A stretch of DNA of 64,000 nt from Clostridia bacterium. Its GTDB lineage: Bacteria; Bacillota; Clostridia; Christensenellales; QALW01. The notes beneath the pieces were generated by a model, which was not told where the DNA came from, searched no databases, and saw only the letters and a list, made by a program, of their open reading frames with translations. This document shows, in pieces, positions 3,998-45,863 of the stretch (within the stretch, counting starts at the first letter, position 1; every line of letters begins with the position of its first letter). The stretch spans positions 8,854 through 72,853 of the forward strand of contig JAFVVO010000025.1 in NCBI GenBank assembly GCA_017502165.1. The letters run 5' to 3'. Both the position numbers and the translations under genes were made by a program.

Positions 3998-4084
3998 GCC
4001 GGTGTGTTGGAACTGGCAGACGAGACGGACTCAAAATCCGTTGTCAGCGATGGCGTGTGGGTTCGAGTCCCACCACCGGCACCA
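3998..4084 (+). tRNA. tRNA-Leu (anticodon CAA), type II with long variable arm
   Basis: Acceptor GCCGGTG/CACCGGC, anticodon stem ACGGA/TCCGT with loop CTCAAAA, long variable arm, T-arm GTGGGTTCGAGTCCCAC, CCA encoded. Confidence 0.9.
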
Positions 4085-4243
4085 CGTCGCCGCAAGCTAA
4101 AAAAGGCTTGCGGCATTTTTTTGTCAAAAAAACCGCAATGCCTTTGGCGCTGCGTCTCCTTATACGCAAAAAGTCTCGCTCGGCTCATCTGCTCGGTTGC
4201 AAGCGCCCTCACGACGATTCACTGTCGCTACCAACTTTTTGCG
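4085..4243 (+). repeat. Module X: conserved non-coding module, repeated in inverted orientation at 19129-19288
   Basis: Roughly 90 percent identity by eye to the reverse complement of 19129-19288. It begins with a terminator hairpin and contains a 10-bp stem (CGCAAAAAGT with ACTTTTTGCG) enclosing about 57 nt. Confidence 0.8.
4089..4122 (+). terminator. Intrinsic terminator after tRNA-Leu(CAA)
   Basis: GCCGCAAGC ... GCTTGCGGC hairpin followed by a T7 run. Confidence 0.7.
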
Positions 4244-4254
4244 TTAGCGTGTTA

Positions 4255-4282
4255 AGCAGACAAGTAGTCTGCTCTTTTTTTA
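4255..4282 (+). terminator. Intrinsic terminator-like hairpin between modules X and Y
   Basis: AGCAGAC aagta GTCTGCT followed by CTTTTTTT. Confidence 0.55.
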
Positions 4283-4301
4283 TTTAAGAACGGAGAGAAA
4301 A

Positions 4302-4551
4302 AACGGGGTCCCCGAAAAGCAGTATTGCTTTTTGGGGAAAAGGAAGCACAATGGAGCGATTTAGCTTTCTTGTAAAACAAGAAAGCGCTTAAGCGTAATT
4401 TGTGCTGACGCGGGACTCGAAGCCTGAGAGGGAGCAAAGCGTTAAGAAAACGATTGATAATCGTTTTCAGCTTTGCTGTGCGAGACGGGTACTGCGAGCA
4501 TTACGGAGTAAGCGGAGCGGTCGTTGAGCAGGTAAGGCGCGAAGCGACTGT
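4302..4551 (+). ncRNA. Module Y: candidate structured RNA or repeat element of unknown class, second copy at 19306-19560 (minus strand)
   Basis: About 250 nt and about 88 percent identical to the other copy. It has a 12-bp hairpin (4310-4337), a 9-bp hairpin GCTTTCTTG/CAAGAAAGC and nested stems AGCAAAGC/GCTTTGCT and AAAACGAT/ATCGTTTT. Differences between the copies keep the pairing: G-U versus A-U at 4314, C-G versus U-A at 4418/4426, and G-U versus G-C at 4519/4549. Confidence 0.5.
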
Positions 4552-4569
4552 GTCCCACCACCGGCACCA
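4552..4569 (+). repeat. Exact 18-nt duplicate of the 3' end of tRNA-Leu(CAA) (equals 4067-4084)
   Basis: GTCCCACCACCGGCACCA occurs at 4067-4084 (T-loop end to CCA) and again at 4552-4569. Confidence 0.95.
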
Positions 4570-4602
4570 AAAAATCGACAGGTTTCGACCTGTCGATTTT
4601 TT
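4570..4602 (+). terminator. Intrinsic terminator after the duplicated tRNA 3' end
   Basis: ATCGACAGG tttcga CCTGTCGAT followed by a T6 run. Confidence 0.65.
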
Positions 4603-4604
4603 AT

Positions 4605-4780
4605 CCATTGCGAAAGCAATGGTATATCATCACGCGCAAGCGTGCATCTCATCACCGAAGGTGTATATCATCAGCCGCAGGCTGCATTTCTTTTCGCAAT
4701 GATGATATGCAAAACTTCGTTTTGATGATATGCAATTCCTGCGGAATTGATGATATACACGGCTTTCGCCGTGATTTATG
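4605..4780 (+). other. Array of seven short hairpins separated by an inverted 9-11 nt arm motif (TATATCATCA / TGATGATAT)
   Basis: Hairpins lie at 4605-4622 (GAAA loop), 4631-4644 (GCAA loop), 4653-4663, 4672-4684, 4710-4724, 4733-4749 and 4759-4772. Arms lie at 4622-4632, 4645-4654 and 4664-4673 (one sense) and 4700-4709, 4723-4732 and 4748-4758 (reverse complement). Confidence 0.6.
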
Positions 4781-4833
4781 TAAGAGTTCGAATTCATACG
4801 CAAAAACATCTTTTTTGTAGCCCATAGACATAA

Positions 4834-4864
4834 CAAAAAAACAGACTAAGGGTCTGTTTTTTGT
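4834..4864. terminator. Bidirectional terminator-like hairpin, similar to the one at 19099-19120
   Basis: A-run, CAGAC taagg GTCTG, T-run. Nearly the same sequence (AACAAAAAAACAGACcaacGGTCTG) occurs at 19093-19118. Confidence 0.5.
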
Positions 4865-4869
4865 TATTT

Positions 4870-4922
4870 TGGGGGAAGGAAGGGACTTGACCACAAACCG
4901 TTAAAAAAACGATTGATAATCA
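4870..4922. repeat. Degenerate third fragment: reverse-complement tRNA 3'-half-like sequence plus a partial module-Y core
   Basis: TGGGGGAAGGAAGGGACTTGACC resembles the reverse complement of the tRNA-Leu(AAG) 3' end (TGGTGCGAATGAAGGGACTTGAACC). CGTTAAAAAAACGATTGATAATC repeats the Y core seen at 4440-4466. Confidence 0.45.
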
Positions 4923-5008
4923 TCAGTGCTTTCTATAACTCTCAAATTGACTTTTTATGCGCATTATAATATAATACTTTACAGAATAATCAGTTAAGGA
5001 ATACTCTA

Positions 5009-6352
5009 ATGGAATCTAACAAATTTTTTGCAACGGCACCGCCCGTAAAACTGTTTTTTATTGCCGCAATACCGGGTATGATAAGTATGCTTGCGGCGAC
5101 GGCATACGGTATTGCCGAGGGCGTTTTTATAGGTAATTGGCTTGGCGAAACTGCTTTTGCGGCAGTAAGCATAGGCTTTCCCTTTGTTTTGATAAACTTT
5201 TCCCTTGCAGACCTGGTGGGCGTAGGCTCTTCTGCACCGATTTCCATTGCCTTAGGCAAAAAGGATCAGGAAAAGGCAAACAATATTTTCACCTGCTCGT
5301 TAATTTTAATGCTTGCAACGGCAGTTTTTATGGGAATTTTAATGTTCGTTTTTGCGGACGCCTTGGTATCACTTTTAGGCGCAACGGGAGAGCTGGCGGC
5401 TCTTGCGGCTCTGTACGTGCGTGTTTATGCAATTTTCAGTCCGCTCACCACAGTGGTTTTTGCGGTAGATAATTACTTAAGAATATCGGGCTTTGTAAAA
5501 TTCAGTATGATAATAAACATAGTGATGACGCTTATTACCGTTTCACTTCTGTTTTTGTTTTTAGAGGTTATGTCAATGGGGGTTGAAGGTTCAGCCTTGG
5601 CATCAAGTCTCAGTATGTTTATTTGCGCGGTGATAGCCTTCGTGCCTTTTTTGCTTAAAAAGACGGTGCTGAGGTTTACGCGGCCGAGGTTTTCTTTTGC
5701 AATGATTAAGGAAATAGTTGCCTGCGGTTCACCCGTGTTTCTCAACAACGTTGCAGGAAGAGTTACGTCTATAGTAATGAATTCGGCACTTCTTAATTTA
5801 GGCGGACAAACTGCCGTTGCGGCGTTTTCCGTGCTGATGTATTCGGGGGAGATTATTCAGCCCTTAATGTACGGTATGTGCGATTCCGTTCAGCCTGCCA
5901 TTGGCTATAACTGGGGAGCAAAGCAGCTTGACAGAGTTAAAAATATAGCAAAATGCTCCTTTGTGGGAAGCGGTATTATCTCTGTTTTAGGTGCGGCAGG
6001 AATGTTATTATTCAGCCGTGAGCTTACCTCACTGTTTGTTGCAAAGGGTGACGTTGAACTGCTTGAAATGTCCGTTTATGCTCTGAAACTGTTTGCCTCA
6101 ACGTATTTGTTCCGTTGGTTTGCCTTTGCAACCCAAAGCTTCCACAGTGCTATCGGAAAGCCCAAGCCTGCGGCAATTTTATCAGTTTCAACCGCGTTTG
6201 TTTTCCCGATACTTTTCGTTGTCGCTCTTTGGCCGCTGGGACTTGACGGTTTATGGCTCAACCAAAGCGTAACGGCGCTTGTGGTTTGCATAATGGCGCT
6301 TTTTATGATTCTTCGAACTCAAAAGAGCATCAAATATTATATTGCAGCTTAA
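5009..6352 (+). CDS. MATE family efflux transporter
   Basis: 447 aa with about 12 TM segments and a MatE-like sequence pattern. Confidence 0.8.
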   Translation: MESNKFFATAPPVKLFFIAAIPGMISMLAATAYGIAEGVFIGNWLGETAFAAVSIGFPFVLINFSLADLVGVGSSAPISIALGKKDQEKANNIFTCSLILMLATAVFMGILMFVFADALVSLLGATGELAALAALYVRVYAIFSPLTTVVFAVDNYLRISGFVKFSMIINIVMTLITVSLLFLFLEVMSMGVEGSALASSLSMFICAVIAFVPFLLKKTVLRFTRPRFSFAMIKEIVACGSPVFLNNVAGRVTSIVMNSALLNLGGQTAVAAFSVLMYSGEIIQPLMYGMCDSVQPAIGYNWGAKQLDRVKNIAKCSFVGSGIISVLGAAGMLLFSRELTSLFVAKGDVELLEMSVYALKLFASTYLFRWFAFATQSFHSAIGKPKPAAILSVSTAFVFPILFVVALWPLGLDGLWLNQSVTALVVCIMALFMILRTQKSIKYYIAA

Positions 6353-19603: not shown

Positions 19604-19688
19604 TGGTGCGAATGAAGGGACTTGAACCCTTACGTCTGTTGACACATGATCCTTAGTCATGCCTGTCTGCCAATTCCAGCACACTCGC
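19604..19688 (-). tRNA. tRNA-Leu with anticodon AAG (A34), type II
   Basis: The hand-folded sequence is GCGAGTG TG CTG GAATTGGCAGA CAG G CATGA CTAAGGA TCATG, a 13-nt variable arm, AAGGG TTCAAGT CCCTT CATTCGC A CCA. Confidence 0.85.
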
Positions 19689-20520: not shown

Positions 20521-22929
20521 TTACTCGTTTCCGCTTGAAGCGGGTGTTGTCTCGGGTGTGGGAGTTGCCTCTCCGTCGGGAGCGGGTGCTGTCTCGGGAG
20601 TTGGCGTTGCTTCGGGTGTGGGTGTTGCCTCACCGTCGGGAGTAGGTGTTGGCTCTCCGTCGGGAGTAGGTGTTGGCTCTCCGTCGGGAGTAGGTGTTGC
20701 TTCGCCGTCGGGTGTAGGCGTTGCTTCGCCGTCGGGAGTAGGCGTTGCTTCGCCGTCGGGCGTAGGCGTTGCTTCACCGTCGGGTGTAGGTGTTGCTTCG
20801 CCGTCGGGAGCAGGTGTTACTGCGGGGGTAGGCTTAGCGGTGGGAGTAGGTGTAACGTCGGGGACAGGTGTTTTCCAATCGGGATTAACAACCGCAGGAG
20901 GAGTTGTTGCAGGCGCTCCTGAAGGATTGTATGCGGAATTAGTTCTGTTAGCGTCAACCATTTCCTTTAATTTAGCATCACCGTCAAGAGCCATATCTGT
21001 CCAGCCGTTTTTGGTAAAATGCTGATATTTTAATGCGTTAAGATTAATTCGCGCCAAAACCACGCCGGAATCACTGGTGGTGTGGTAATAGAGCCAGCCT
21101 CCAGCCTGAGAAAGCTCACTGCAAAGAATGTCACTTGAGAGCTTTGCGGGCGTCGCAATAGTTTTGAATTTAACGTAAAGAGAATTTGCGTCTGTTTCGC
21201 TGGTGTAAATCAAATAACGTGTGCCTGCCTGAATGTGATTGTATGCAGCGGGAATAATAGTAGTTGCGGCGGCTTCGTTAAGGCTGATAAGGGGAAGAGT
21301 AAGGCAATGCTTGTCGCTGTAATAACGGCGGTAGCAAAGGTTGTTTTCGTACATAAAGGGGCGGTCAACACGGGAAGAGAGAAGTCTTTGGGATTTTTCG
21401 GTAGTAATGTCGAAACGGTAAAGACGTTCTGCGTTCACGCGTGCGTCCTGCGTATAATAGAAGCTTCCCTTATAGAAGAACAGATGAGAAATATCTCTTG
21501 CCAAAATAGGCTGACGGTTTGATCCGTCCTTTTTTATTTTGAATAAATTGTTCTTATTAAGCGTGTTTGCAAAATATATCCAGTCATTGATAACTAAAAC
21601 GTAGGCGCTGGTGTCAACGGTTGTAACCGTTACGGGCGCGCCCCCTGAAACCGAAACCTTGGTTAAGTGGCCTGCACTGTCAAGATTACTGTAATAAAGG
21701 TATCCGTCGGAATAGTTGAGGTTTGCCGCCTTATGACTTGAAATAAGCGTCACGCTGCTTCCGTCGGGGCGCGATTTGAAGATTTTACCGCCGTTTGTTC
21801 GGTCGATATAATATAACCAGTTGCCTACCTGGCAGGCAATGGAATTGTTCTGAGCGTTAAAGGCGTTAGTGCCTAAAGCGTAAAAGGCCTGATAAGAATT
21901 TTCCGCGTTAGCCTCCAAGGAAAATAAATCTGCAATAATCAGCGGATCGTAATTGCTCATACGGGTGTATTTTGGGTCCTTGGAAAAGCTCTTATAACGA
22001 ATTGCGTCACCGTTGCGGACCTCAACGTGAATGTGGGTGTCGCCTGCAGGGTCGCCCGCGCTTCCGCCAAAGCCTAAAAGGTCACCTTTTTTAACTGTGC
22101 CGCCGCTTGTTACAAGCTGTCTTGCAGGGGCAATATCCTGCCCGTGAAGAATAAGCACCGTAAGGTTATATTCCTTAGAATAAATGGCAATAGTATTGTA
22201 ATCGTCGGAATTAAGAACCGTTAAGGTGCCGTCAATGGGCGAGTAGAAGGGACGGTTTTCCTGAGTGTTGAAATCGGTTGCGGTGTGAATATAATTTTCC
22301 AAAATTCCCGCAGTAGAGGAGTGCTTAGTTAAAAAGCCCTGAATAATGCTTCCGTAATCCTTGCCGAAATAGGATTTATCGTTGGTTTTGAACAGGTTTG
22401 AAGCAAGGCGGACGGCTCTGTCGTCCTCTTGATTGGGATTTTGAGCGTTATAGAAGGTAAGGTCGTCGTATTGGTCGGCATTGCTGAGACCGTAAATAAT
22501 GCCGGGAATATAATCGAATTTTGCGTATGCAAGCACCTTGCCGTCCTCGGTGGTGGATACTACGGCAATCCTGCGGCAGTCGGTGCCGGAAATAACAGCG
22601 CCCTTTTCGATTTTAGTCCAGGAAGAAGCGTCAAAGCCGGGCGCAAAATCTTCAAACTGACCGTTTGCACCGTAAACCTTGTATCTGAAAGTGCCTTCAA
22701 TGTTAGCGTCGAAAATAACGTCGCCTACGCCGTAGGGCGCTTGGCTTGCTCCGTAAAGAAGCATACCGTCGGAGAAAAATACCTCTTGCTTTTCCTCCTG
22801 AGGCTTGTCCGTTAAATCGGGCAAAACGGGAGCCTTAAATCTGTCCCAGGGCAAGAATATGGCGGTTACGGTCAGGGCGAGAATGAGTATTAAAGCCGTT
22901 ACAACCGTAGGAAAATATTTTTTAAGCAT
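20521..22929 (-). CDS. Membrane-anchored M23 peptidase with DUF5050-like beta-propeller repeats and a C-terminal Pro/Thr-rich tandem repeat
   Basis: N-terminal TM segment. The M23 motif is GDTHIHVEV. YY-rich propeller repeats follow, then about 9 copies of TPTPDGEA. Confidence 0.7.
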   Translation of the reverse strand: MLKKYFPTVVTALILILALTVTAIFLPWDRFKAPVLPDLTDKPQEEKQEVFFSDGMLLYGASQAPYGVGDVIFDANIEGTFRYKVYGANGQFEDFAPGFDASSWTKIEKGAVISGTDCRRIAVVSTTEDGKVLAYAKFDYIPGIIYGLSNADQYDDLTFYNAQNPNQEDDRAVRLASNLFKTNDKSYFGKDYGSIIQGFLTKHSSTAGILENYIHTATDFNTQENRPFYSPIDGTLTVLNSDDYNTIAIYSKEYNLTVLILHGQDIAPARQLVTSGGTVKKGDLLGFGGSAGDPAGDTHIHVEVRNGDAIRYKSFSKDPKYTRMSNYDPLIIADLFSLEANAENSYQAFYALGTNAFNAQNNSIACQVGNWLYYIDRTNGGKIFKSRPDGSSVTLISSHKAANLNYSDGYLYYSNLDSAGHLTKVSVSGGAPVTVTTVDTSAYVLVINDWIYFANTLNKNNLFKIKKDGSNRQPILARDISHLFFYKGSFYYTQDARVNAERLYRFDITTEKSQRLLSSRVDRPFMYENNLCYRRYYSDKHCLTLPLISLNEAAATTIIPAAYNHIQAGTRYLIYTSETDANSLYVKFKTIATPAKLSSDILCSELSQAGGWLYYHTTSDSGVVLARINLNALKYQHFTKNGWTDMALDGDAKLKEMVDANRTNSAYNPSGAPATTPPAVVNPDWKTPVPDVTPTPTAKPTPAVTPAPDGEATPTPDGEATPTPDGEATPTPDGEATPTPDGEATPTPDGEPTPTPDGEPTPTPDGEATPTPEATPTPETAPAPDGEATPTPETTPASSGNE
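20560..20830. repeat. 24-bp in-frame tandem repeat (coding, TPTPDGEA units)
   Basis: The unit CCGTCGGGAGTAGGTGTTGCTTCG recurs about 9-10 times with point variants. Confidence 0.85.
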
Positions 22930-41300: not shown

Positions 41301-43736
41301 ATGGGGCTTTTCGGATTCGGCGATAACACCGCCAGCCAACTTAAGAAGCTTGAAAAAATAGCCGCAAAAATAGAAGCGCTTGATGAAAAAATGCAGGGGC
41401 TTGAAGACGGCGATTTCAAGGAAAAAACAGAAGAATTTAAACAAAGATACGCTCTTGGAGAAACCCTGGACGATTTACTTCCCGAGGCATTTGCAGTTGC
41501 AAGAGAAGCGGCTTGGCGAGTTTTAGGACAAAAACCCTTCCACGTTCAGCTTCTTGGCGGTATCGTTTTGCATCAGGGCAGAATTGCCGAAATGAAAACA
41601 GGTGAAGGTAAAACTCTTACGGCAACCCTTCCTGCATATCTTAATGCAATTTCGGGCAAGGGCGTGCATATCGTAACGGTTAACGAATATCTTGCAGGAT
41701 ATCAGTCCGAAATGATGAGCAAGCTGTTTAATTTCTTAGGCTTAACCGTTGGTAACATTTTCAACCAGATGACAAGGGAAGACCGTCAGCAAGCTTATGC
41801 GGCGGACATTACCTACGGCACCAACAGTGAGTTCGGCTTTGACTATCTTCGCGACAATATGGCAAAAAGCGGCTCCGCCCGTTCACAGCGCGGACTTAAT
41901 TTCGCTATTGTTGACGAGGTTGACAGCATTTTAATCGACGAAGCAAGAACGCCTTTGATTATTTCGGGTATGGGTGAAGAATCCTCTCAAATGTATCTTA
42001 AGGCAAATGCAATCGTGCGTTCTTTCTCAGGTATTGCCGAAAAGGAAAAGGCAAGTAAAATTGACCTTCCCGACGAGGAGTATGAGGCGGAACGCTTAAA
42101 GCACGAATTTACCTTTGACGAAAAGGCGAGAACCGTTTCCTTAACCGAAACGGGCGTAACAAAGGTTGAACGCGCTCTTGGAATAGAAGATCTTTCGGAC
42201 CCCGAAAACACAGAGCTTGCTCACTATATAAATCAGGCGCTTAAGGCAAACTTTATTTTCAAGCGCGATAAAGACTATATCGTTTCTGACGACGGCCAGG
42301 TTAAAATCGTTGACGAGTTTACGGGCAGAATTTTAGAGGGCAGAAGATACAGCGAGGGCTTACATCAGGCGATAGAAGCCAAGGAAAACGTTAAGGTTGC
42401 TCAGGAAAACAAAACCTTAGCTACCATAACGTATCAGAACTTCTTCAGAATGTATAAAAAGCTTTCGGGTATGACGGGTACCGCAAAAACCGAGGAAGAG
42501 GAATTTAAGGGTATATACGCTCTTGACGTTGTTTGTGTTCCTACAAATAAGCCTATGATAAGGCAGGATCTGAACGACCGCATTTACAAAAGCATTCCCG
42601 ATAAGTTCAATGCGGTGGTGCAGGAGGTTATAGACCGTCACGCTTTAGGGCAGCCTATATTGGTAGGTACCGTTTCGGTTGAAATCAGTGAGCTTATTTC
42701 CGCAATGCTTCGCAAGCGCGGAGTTAAGCACGAGGTGCTGAATGCAAAGCATCACGCTAAGGAAGCGGAAATCGTTGCTCAGGCAGGAAGACTCGGCGCA
42801 GTAACCATTGCTACTAATATGGCAGGTCGTGGTACGGATATTCTTCTTGGCGGTAACCCCGACTTTATGGCACGAAAAGAGCTTAAAGGCGCAGGCTATG
42901 AAGACGATAAAATCGACCTTGCAACCGGCCATCAGTCAACCGACGATCAGGAAATTCTTGCTCTTCGCGCAAAATATAAGGAGCTTTACGCAAAATATAA
43001 GAAGATAACAGATGCAGAGCACGAGCAGGTTGTTCAGGCGGGCGGACTTTGCATTTTAGGTACCGAGCGCCACGAAAGCAGACGAATTGACAATCAGCTT
43101 CGAGGCCGCGCAGGCCGTCAGGGCGACCCGGGCGCAAGCTGCTTCTTCATTTCCTTTGAGGACGACCTTATGCGTCTTTTTGGCGGAGATAAAATGCAAA
43201 TGCTTGCAGGCAGAGCACTTGACGGTGATATGGCTCTGGAGGCAGGTATGCTTTCCAAGAGCATTGAAAACGCCCAGAAGCGTGTTGAGGGCAGAAACTT
43301 CTCAATCAGAAAGAACGTTTTGCAGTATGACGACGTTATGAATACTCAGCGTGAGGTTATTTATTCTCAGCGCCGCCGAGTGCTTGAGGGGGAGGACGTC
43401 TCCGAGTCCATTCGTGAAATGCGCAAAAAGGTTATCGGCAGATTCGTTCAGCTTTTTACCGCCGACCAGAACAAAAACGACTGGAACTTAAAGGGCTTGG
43501 TTGAAGAGTTAAAGCGTCTTTGCTTACCTAAGGAGGCAACGGCAAATGAGCTTAAGGGACTTTCTCGTGACGACATTGCTTTCCGCCTTAACGAGCTTTC
43601 AGAGGAAAGATACGTTGAAAGAACCAAGGAGCTTGCAAAATTAGGCGTAGATATCCGTGATATTGAGAGGTTTGCGCTTTTAGAGTCCGTTGACCGTCAC
43701 TGGATGGACCATATCGACGCTATGGATCAGCTTTAA
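41301..43736 (+). CDS. secA: Preprotein translocase ATPase SecA, first 811 codons, ending at an in-frame TAA
   Basis: Contains Walker A MKTGEGKT, DEVDSILIDEARTPLIIS and the remaining SecA motifs. The frame stops at HWMDHIDAMDQL*. Confidence 0.85.
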   Translation: MGLFGFGDNTASQLKKLEKIAAKIEALDEKMQGLEDGDFKEKTEEFKQRYALGETLDDLLPEAFAVAREAAWRVLGQKPFHVQLLGGIVLHQGRIAEMKTGEGKTLTATLPAYLNAISGKGVHIVTVNEYLAGYQSEMMSKLFNFLGLTVGNIFNQMTREDRQQAYAADITYGTNSEFGFDYLRDNMAKSGSARSQRGLNFAIVDEVDSILIDEARTPLIISGMGEESSQMYLKANAIVRSFSGIAEKEKASKIDLPDEEYEAERLKHEFTFDEKARTVSLTETGVTKVERALGIEDLSDPENTELAHYINQALKANFIFKRDKDYIVSDDGQVKIVDEFTGRILEGRRYSEGLHQAIEAKENVKVAQENKTLATITYQNFFRMYKKLSGMTGTAKTEEEEFKGIYALDVVCVPTNKPMIRQDLNDRIYKSIPDKFNAVVQEVIDRHALGQPILVGTVSVEISELISAMLRKRGVKHEVLNAKHHAKEAEIVAQAGRLGAVTIATNMAGRGTDILLGGNPDFMARKELKGAGYEDDKIDLATGHQSTDDQEILALRAKYKELYAKYKKITDAEHEQVVQAGGLCILGTERHESRRIDNQLRGRAGRQGDPGASCFFISFEDDLMRLFGGDKMQMLAGRALDGDMALEAGMLSKSIENAQKRVEGRNFSIRKNVLQYDDVMNTQREVIYSQRRRVLEGEDVSESIREMRKKVIGRFVQLFTADQNKNDWNLKGLVEELKRLCLPKEATANELKGLSRDDIAFRLNELSEERYVERTKELAKLGVDIRDIERFALLESVDRHWMDHIDAMDQL

Positions 43737-44036
43737 CAGGGTATTTCTCTGTGCTCAATGGCACAAAGGGATCCCTTGCAGGAATTTAAGATGGAAGGCT
43801 TCGATATGTTTGAAGAAATGACGCGCTCCATTCAGGAGGACGCAGTTCGTTTCGCATTTAACATTGCAATCAACATTCAGCCGAGAGAACATAAAATAAC
43901 AAACGAAAGCACCGACGGAACAAGACCTCAAAAGGTGAAAAAGGCTTCCCAGCAGGCAACAAGCCAGAAGGTTGGCAGAAATGATCCCTGCCCCTGCGGA
44001 AGCGGTAAAAAATATAAGCAATGCTGCGGTAAATAA
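43737..44036 (+). CDS. secA: SecA C-terminal segment (two-helix finger and zinc-binding tail), same frame as 41301-43736
   Basis: It continues [25 protein letters not shown]...[17 protein letters not shown] in the same frame (43737 minus 41301 is a multiple of 3). Confidence 0.7.
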
Positions 44037-44687: not shown

Positions 44688-44755
44688 GGATAGCACTTCA
44701 AAAGAAAAACAATCTAAAAATAAACGGTCATAAGGACCATAAGGAGATGATAAAT

Positions 44756-45863
44756 TTGATAGAATTCGATTCATTTAAGCAACGTGCGGCTCAGGCGGCT
44801 GCAAATATCAAATTGGCAGGTGAATCCCTTTAACCCTGAGGGGATGAAGGACAGAATATTAGAGCTTAACGAGGAAATGGCTGAGCCTGATTTCTGGCTT
44901 GACCAGGAAAAAGCGCAGAAGAAAAACAAGGAGCTTGCTCACCTTGAAAGCAAGGTAAAGGAGCTTGCGTCCTTTGATAGCTCCCTTGAAGACGTGCAAG
45001 CTATGATTGAGCTTTGCATTGAAATGGAAGACGAGGATACTGCCAGGGAAATTGAGGCAGAGTTAACCTTGCTTGAAGCGAGAATAGAAAAGCTTCAGCT
45101 TGAAACAATGCTTACGGGACAGTACGATGCCAACAACGCTATTTTAACGCTTCACGCAGGGGCAGGCGGAACGGAGGCGCAGGACTGGACGGATATGCTT
45201 TACAGAATGTATCGCAGATATTGTGAGAAATCAGGATATCAGGTTGAAGTTCTCGATTATCTTGCAGGTGATGAGGCAGGAACTAAAAGCGTAACCTTCC
45301 GCGCTATAGGTGAAAACGCTTACGGCTTCTTAAAGGCAGAAAAGGGCGTACACCGTCTGGTGCGTATTTCTCCCTTTGATGCTAACTCAAGAAGACACAC
45401 TTCTTTCTCCGCACTCGAAGTTATGCCCGAAATTGAGGACGAGGGTGAAATCGTTATTCCTCCTGAGGACATTGAAGTTGAAACCCGTCGTTCAACGGGC
45501 GCAGGCGGTCAGCATATTAACAAGACCGAGTCCGCCATCAGAATTATTCATAAGCCTACGGGCATTATCGTTCAATGCCAGCAGGAGCGTTCACAGATTC
45601 AGAACAGAGAAACTGCTATGAATATGCTTCGATCCAAGCTTATTGAACTGCGTGAGCGCGAGCGGGAAGAAAAAGAGCTGGAGCTTAAGGGCGACATTAA
45701 AAAGATTGAATGGGGCAGTCAGATACGTTCCTACGTTTTCCACCCCTACAATATGGTAAAGGACCACAGAACCAATGCGGAAACGGCAAATATTCAGAGC
45801 GTTATGGACGGCAATCTGGATATGTTTATCCGCGCATATTTAGGTAAAAAGGATAATAATTGA
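44756..45863 (+). CDS. prfB: Peptide chain release factor 2, requiring a +1 frameshift at 44828-44834 (join 44756..44830, 44832..45863)
   Basis: ORF0 reads (M)IEFDSFKQRAAQAAANIKLAGESL then stops. The +1 frame continues NPEGMKDRILELNEEMAEPDFW. SPF and GGQHINKTESA motifs are present. The internal SD-like AGGTGA lies upstream of the shift site. Confidence 0.85.

Follow-up and report, generated by a model that had tools for sequence, protein, structure and literature searches.

Can a prfB programmed +1 frameshift site do without an RF2-specific stop codon, and what would such a site sense? The question is raised by a prfB locus of a gut Clostridia metagenome-assembled genome, lying in a 64,000-nt stretch of DNA that was analysed over its whole length (hereafter, the window), in which the stop codon that interrupts the RF2 coding sequence is a TAA, where canonical sites have TGA. 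The initial annotation of this DNA had recognised a prfB frameshift site in its usual position, equipped with an SD-like element, a slippery CTT and a C after the stop, and had ascribed the TAA to one G-to-A change. This description holds in full: the two reading frames give a colinear RF2 product of 371 aa, the elements named are all present between 44818 and 44834, the stop at 44831–44833 is TAA, and the sister species have, in the same place, CTT TGA C with Asp (GAC), so that a single G-to-A change accounts for both the TAA and the Asn of the window.

The coordinates of the features are collected in Table 1. ORF0 ends with ...GCA GGT GAA TCC CTT TAA C, in which the slippery Leu codon CUU (44828–44830) comes directly before the in-frame stop and could re-pair on UUU, and the C is at 44834; the +1 frame, read from the AAC at 44832, is NPEGMKDRILELNEEMAEPDFW... 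As for the beginning of ORF0, the most upstream possibility is ATG 44747, which would give 28 codons; this ATG is 0 nt from the AAGGAG, the complementarity of which to the anti-SD runs on through xTGAT to 44751, and the TTG at 44756 is 9 nt from it. Given this spacing and the canonical length of 25 codons, which is also that of the homologous ORF0s of three relatives (L013, L014 and L031), the true start codon is probably the TTG, the one used by the initial annotation. The 0 frame of the window species is alone in reading TAA CCC TGA, with CCC TGA at 44834–44839 and hence a second stop two codons on; the relatives have CCG GAA there.

Table 1. Positions in the window of the features discussed in the text.
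Feature	Positions	Strand	Remarks
tRNA-Leu gene	19604–19688	−	anticodon AAG, anticodon loop CUAAGGA, encoded CCA end
802-aa ORF	20521–22929	−	repeats at the C-terminus, about 20521–20900
secA	41301–44036	+	in-frame TAA 43734–43736 in a CTT TAA C context; TGC (Cys) 43752–43754
ORF0 ribosome-binding site, AAGGAG	44741–44746	+	segment also kept in relatives
prfB ORF0	44756–44830	+	putative TTG start, 25 codons, (M)IEFDSFKQRAAQAAANIKLAGESL
Internal SD-like element, AGGTGA	44818–44823	+	4 nt 5' of the slippery CTT
Shift heptamer, CTT TAA C	44828–44834	+	Leu codon in the P site, in-frame stop, C at +4 (weak context)
In-frame TAA closing ORF0	44831–44833	+	A at 44832
ORF1, RF2 body in the +1 frame	44832–45863	+	343 codons, starts with AAC (Asn), ends with TGA 45861–45863
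SPF tripeptide	45369–45377	+	RF2 stop-codon discriminator
GGQ motif	45504–45512	+	peptidyl hydrolysis

The product obtained by joining ORF0 and ORF1, in which the junction reads ...AGESL-NPEGMK..., was compared with protein family models. It scored 508.5 bits against NCBIfam TIGR00020 (prfB, cut-off 370), with positions 4–352 of the model matching residues 17–365 of the joined product; the match starts inside ORF0 and is colinear across the junction. On the same 371-aa sequence the RF1 models remained below their cut-offs. For ORF1 the precomputed Pfam families were PCRF and RF-1, and both the SPF tripeptide and the GGQ motif are in place. These matches identify the joined product as a genuine RF2. 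Moreover, the N-terminal helix specified by ORF0 is encoded in frame by RF2 homologues that have no shift (P0070 and P0109).

The heptamer CTTTAAC occurs nine times per strand in the window and, alone, is not significant. On positional grounds, instead, it is beyond chance, as it falls at the exact junction of the two frames that encode RF2 and belongs to a cassette kept in 16 related sequences. In these sequences conservation at third positions was 0.93 over the seven codons that end ORF0 (AAA TTG GCA GGT GAA TCY CTT), compared with 0.72 for the rest of ORF0 and 0.69 for the RF2 body, and the AGGTGA was invariant with the exception of one synonymous-site change. The native cassette can be written as AAATTGGCAGGTGAATCC CTT NNN C, and AAATTGGCAGGTGAATCYCTTT is kept at synonymous sites whether the species has TAA, TGA or TAG; a constraint of this kind on the nucleotides of the last ORF0 codons is what a recoding cassette predicts, whichever stop is present. 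The C at +4 was likewise kept in all the TAA, TGA and TAG sites surveyed, and TAAC is rare at ordinary TAA stops, being found in 3 of the 35 TAA-ended ORFs of the window, one of which is the internal secA stop.

A minor regularity concerns the E-site Ser codon (44825–44827). In a comparison of L001–L015, the five close relatives of the TAA type all had TCC here, and those of the TGA and TAG types that share the AAATTGGCAGGTGA cassette had TCT; exceptions were met among the N-termini of the protein databases, with TCC and TGA in P0005, P0026 and P0043, and TCT and TAA in P0016. A local hairpin around the stop (AUCYCUU/ARGGGAU) was considered as the cause of this pairing and discarded, since it is missing from the TAG lineage described below and the folds did not stand out from shuffled sequences (z from −0.6 to −2.8). 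A Rfam scan of the region 40–48 kb gave no match.

We propose that this locus is a working prfB +1 frameshift site of the canonical type, in which one G-to-A transition converted the in-frame UGA into UAA, and we assign to this reading a probability of about 0.85. According to it, the ribosome would translate the 25 codons of ORF0 and pause on the CUU while UAA-C occupies the A site; the SD-like AGGUGA would pair with the tail of the 16S rRNA, the tRNA would re-pair on UUU, and with AAC (Asn) as the next codon full-length RF2 would be produced. Termination at the UAA would compete with the shift. RF2 reads UAA by definition, and would still feed back negatively on its own synthesis; as RF1 would also be able to terminate at UAA, the feedback would no longer be RF2-specific. 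From the codon specificities of the two factors it is plausible that the quantity sensed is total release-factor activity and not RF2 alone. The occurrence of the shift, its efficiency and the shares of RF1 and RF2 in termination are all things that we infer from the DNA.

No prfA or RF paralogue was found in the 64-kb window. The stop usage of its 48 ORFs was TAA in 35 (73%), TGA in 7 (15%) and TAG in 6 (12%), and the presence of RF1 is implied by the ORFs that end with TAG. In a more distant Clostridia group prfA lies directly 3' of prfB (L031:4008–5099, which is of the TAA type, L048:3335–4438, L067:3331–4419 and L077, about 4064–5077); its product is an RF1, with PTT or PET as the P-x-T discriminator and about 33% identity to the RF2 of the window. 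On the side of the slipping tRNA, CTT makes up 46% of the Leu codons in the window ORFs, and the window holds a gene for tRNA-Leu(AAG). Genes of this type have been described as occurring almost only in Bacilli, with A34 deaminated to inosine (PMC13249217), whereas the present one belongs to a Clostridia genome. Thus, the decoder of CUU, and with it the tRNA that slips, may differ here from the tRNA-Leu(GAG) of E. coli.

A different view of the locus would follow if the A at 44832 stood for a G misread in sequencing or assembly, if TAA were not a stop in this organism, or if no shift took place. That single-base oddities do exist in the window copy is clear from secA, 1.1 kb upstream, which carries an in-frame TAA and, 18 nt 3' of it, a TGC (Cys) in place of a conserved Arg codon; in 50 relatives the position of the TAA is Lys or Arg, and that of the Cys is Arg in nearly all. 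However, same-strain public assemblies from four other samples, found by exact-protein look-ups (L081/L104, ENA ERZ28654893, 6609–13132 bp; L082 and L083, Logan; L103, ERZ28653969, 21,953 bp aligned), match the window with 100% identity across prfB, and the same TAA is present in many related species. Moreover, a 359-aa +1-frame ORF containing ...NPFNP... (P0001), which means TTT AAC in the DNA, is recorded on five contigs. The base that the initial annotation had proposed to check is, then, an A in independent assemblies of the strain, and an error at this position is extremely improbable. Only two bases set the same contigs apart from the window over 6.6–22 kb (21,953 bp in the longest alignment), namely 43734, where they have A, and 43752, where they have C, and the SecA that they encode is intact, with 911 aa; exact-protein look-up found no record of the truncated secA products. 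As far as the sequences tell, the two secA changes are private to the window copy, whether they come from an error, some alteration or a mutation of very recent date, and thus have no bearing on the decoding of TAA. This removes the one observation pointing to reassignment or systematic readthrough of TAA, namely a TAA at a conserved Lys/Arg position in the very same CTT TAA C context, since the public contigs have AAA there. In addition, TAA is the stop of most window ORFs, no other gene of the window is interrupted (a six-frame scan for genes split by a single stop returned two other candidate pairs, both ordinary adjacent genes), the prfB 0 frame in any case reaches a TGA two codons past the TAA, and no suppressor tRNA is found in the window; a TAA that is not a stop is hardly conceivable.

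The absence of any shift, with ORF0 as a separate leader peptide ending at the TAA and RF2 initiated internally, for instance at ATG 44844 (MKDRIL...), agrees with the public RF2 record, MBR2861275.1, in which the NCBI annotation gives 339 aa (44844–45863) beginning with MKDRIL and no frameshift, and with the G-rich GAGGGG that precedes this ATG. The GAGGGG, on the other hand, abuts the ATG with no spacer; ORF0 is homologous to an N-terminal helix that lies in frame in unshifted RF2 genes (P0070, P0109 and also L067), the TIGR00020 match begins inside ORF0 and crosses the junction, and re-initiation offers no rationale for a conserved SD-like element, CTT, stop and C. We regard internal initiation as very unlikely, and the frameshift is simply missed by public annotation: Prodigal-type calling also avoids it, giving the 359-aa P0001 from a GTG of the +1 frame (44784–45863). 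As the RF2 gene is mis-annotated here by gene callers and by NCBI, TAA-type sites may be under-counted in surveys based on metagenome-assembled genomes.

The site that we favour, a working shift signal with UAA, can be compared with that of E. coli prfB, AGG GGG UAU CUU UGA C. They have in common the 25-codon ORF0, the P-site CUU, an in-frame stop followed by C at +4, a nearby SD-like element upstream and an RF2 body in the +1 frame. They differ in the stop, UGA in E. coli, where codon 26 is Asp, and UAA in the window, where it is consequently Asn, and in the SD-like element, AGGGGG with a 3-nt spacer in E. coli and AGGUGA with a 4-nt spacer in the window, a form also occurring in TGA-type Clostridia relatives. 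The same nucleotide and amino-acid change has been engineered in E. coli by Grome et al. (Nature 2025, PMC11903333), who replaced the internal TGA of prfB with TAA (D26N) and observed no significant growth defect; their RF2.B1, however, operates in a strain that lacks RF1 and has TAG and TGA recoded, whereas the window site is natural and its genome uses all three stops. Natural CUU-UAA sites have been published as well, in Chlorobium tepidum, according to the citation of Baranov et al. 2002 in PMC11903333, and in the survey by Prince, Lin and Feaga (bioRxiv, 10.1101/2024.09.24.614795), in which 8160 motif-bearing genomes had TGA in 98.6%, TAA in 1.4% and TAG in none. The latter authors argued that RF2 performs most of the UAA termination in most bacteria, so that RF2 feedback would persist at TAA sites, and reported that TAA sites are scattered and not fixed within clades. 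The window site has lost the RF2-specific UGA; its membership of the prfB recoding family stands, with TAA as the minority state (1.4%) known from the literature.

To place the site in its clade, we scanned one genome per GTDB species, for a total of 80 loci. The frameshift was absent from 27 species and one locus was truncated; the others had CTT TGA C (42 species), CTT TAA C (9 species: L001, L004, L008, L009, L031, L038, L064, L070 and L075) or CTT TAG C (one species, L010). TAA is thus the state of 9 out of 52 frameshift-bearing species (17%), in about six lineages, a value that is not a general frequency, since the use of a TAA-type query biased the sample to its relatives. In the 13 species whose RF2 is 81–90% identical to that of the window, TAA is found in four (L001, L004, L008 and L009), TGA in eight (L002, L003, L005, L006, L007, L011, L012 and L015) and TAG in L010. 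Sets of species have TAA in common, as indicated by their RF2 identities (window and L001, 90%; L008 and L009, 96%; L038, L064 and L070, 82–87%), differently from the scattered CUU-UAA sites of Prince et al. Parsimony on a neighbour-joining RF2 tree without bootstrap support counted at least four changes of state within the group of 16 close relatives, and at least three more elsewhere (L031; L038/L064/L070; L075). TAA was also present in 8/8 assemblies of P0054, an abundant human-gut relative listed in 156 blocks of the collection, and a pattern scan of metagenomes for the cassette gave only three matches, two with TAA and one with TGA. The initial annotation had implied that the site is novel, adding that the novelty would vanish if TAA sites were common in the clade. 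They are indeed common, in addition to being already published, and the claim of novelty falls; the window site is an ordinary further natural example of a documented minority form.

In one relative the frameshift has apparently been lost starting from a TAA-type site. L067:2286–2301 reads GAGGGATTCG CTT AAC in one continuous ORF, and its sister L031:2966–2982 has CTT TAA C with the frameshift; a deletion of one T, with the Asn and the SD-like GAGGGA kept, would be enough to explain L067, although this is a single 5-kb contig from a metagenome-assembled genome, in which a homopolymer error is possible.

The TAG species deserves separate attention. L010:2997–3003 is CTT TAG C in the same cassette, about 25 nt 5' of the called RF2 gene, whose product is 86% identical to the RF2 of the window. 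The TAG was found in 8/8 independent assemblies, i.e., L010 and seven further ones (L087, L088 and L098–L102; six ENA analyses and one Logan run), which represent several haplotypes differing at nearby synonymous sites. Shortly past the TAG the 0 frame comes to an end, and the shift is therefore still required. An altered stop specificity of this RF2 was considered and rejected, as its SPF, GGQ and helix alpha-5 region (GAGGTEAQDW) are all preserved and the lineage-specific substitutions are only peripheral; with these motifs unchanged, termination at the site should depend on RF1. TAG is the state found in 0/8160 genomes by Prince et al. (10.1101/2024.09.24.614795), who took the lack of such cases to argue that RF2 autoregulation is universal. 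A change from TGA to TAG cannot be made in one step and has to go by way of either TAA or the sense codon TGG, so that TAA sites such as that of the window are the likely intermediate.

What these sites sense is a question on which two readings go further than the working frameshift described above. The first, which we put forward only tentatively, is that in this group of uncultured gut Clostridia the stop of the prfB shift site is evolutionarily labile, varying among TGA, TAA and TAG in an otherwise invariant cassette, with one diversified lineage fixed for TAG; the window TAA would be caught midway from TGA to TAG, and the frameshift would sense general termination capacity, or the balance between RF1 and RF2, and not act as an RF2-specific autoregulator. 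If true, this would contradict RF2 autoregulation as the universal purpose of the motif. A stronger departure, and one that we consider unlikely, is that the frameshift works but RF2 autoregulation has effectively been lost, because RF1 dominates at UAA or because the shift efficiency is fixed, so that what the site reports would be RF1, or the general capacity for termination, and not RF2. In favour of such a loss is the sister lineage, in which an RF1-specific TAG in an otherwise identical cassette indicates that an RF2-specific stop is dispensable in the clade, together with the repeated changes of state counted among the close relatives. Moreover, the stop usage of the window resembles that of Flavobacterium johnsoniae, in which RF1 appears more abundant than RF2 (PMC10798248). 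Against it, UAA is read by RF2 too, genetic evidence from E. coli suggests that termination at UAA is mainly the work of RF2, and TGA is the majority state in the clade. The window site alone matters little in this respect; the wider TAA/TAG pattern could matter more, since TAA sites that recur and are shared by sets of species, with a TAG sister lineage beside them, form a natural series in which to ask whether a prfB frameshift must have an RF2-specific stop to be useful.

Outside the prfB region, the C-terminus of the product of the 802-aa ORF on the minus strand contains about nine near-identical Pro/Thr-rich repeats, TPTPDGEA, and, as far as can be judged from its sequence, this product is probably a secreted or surface protein.
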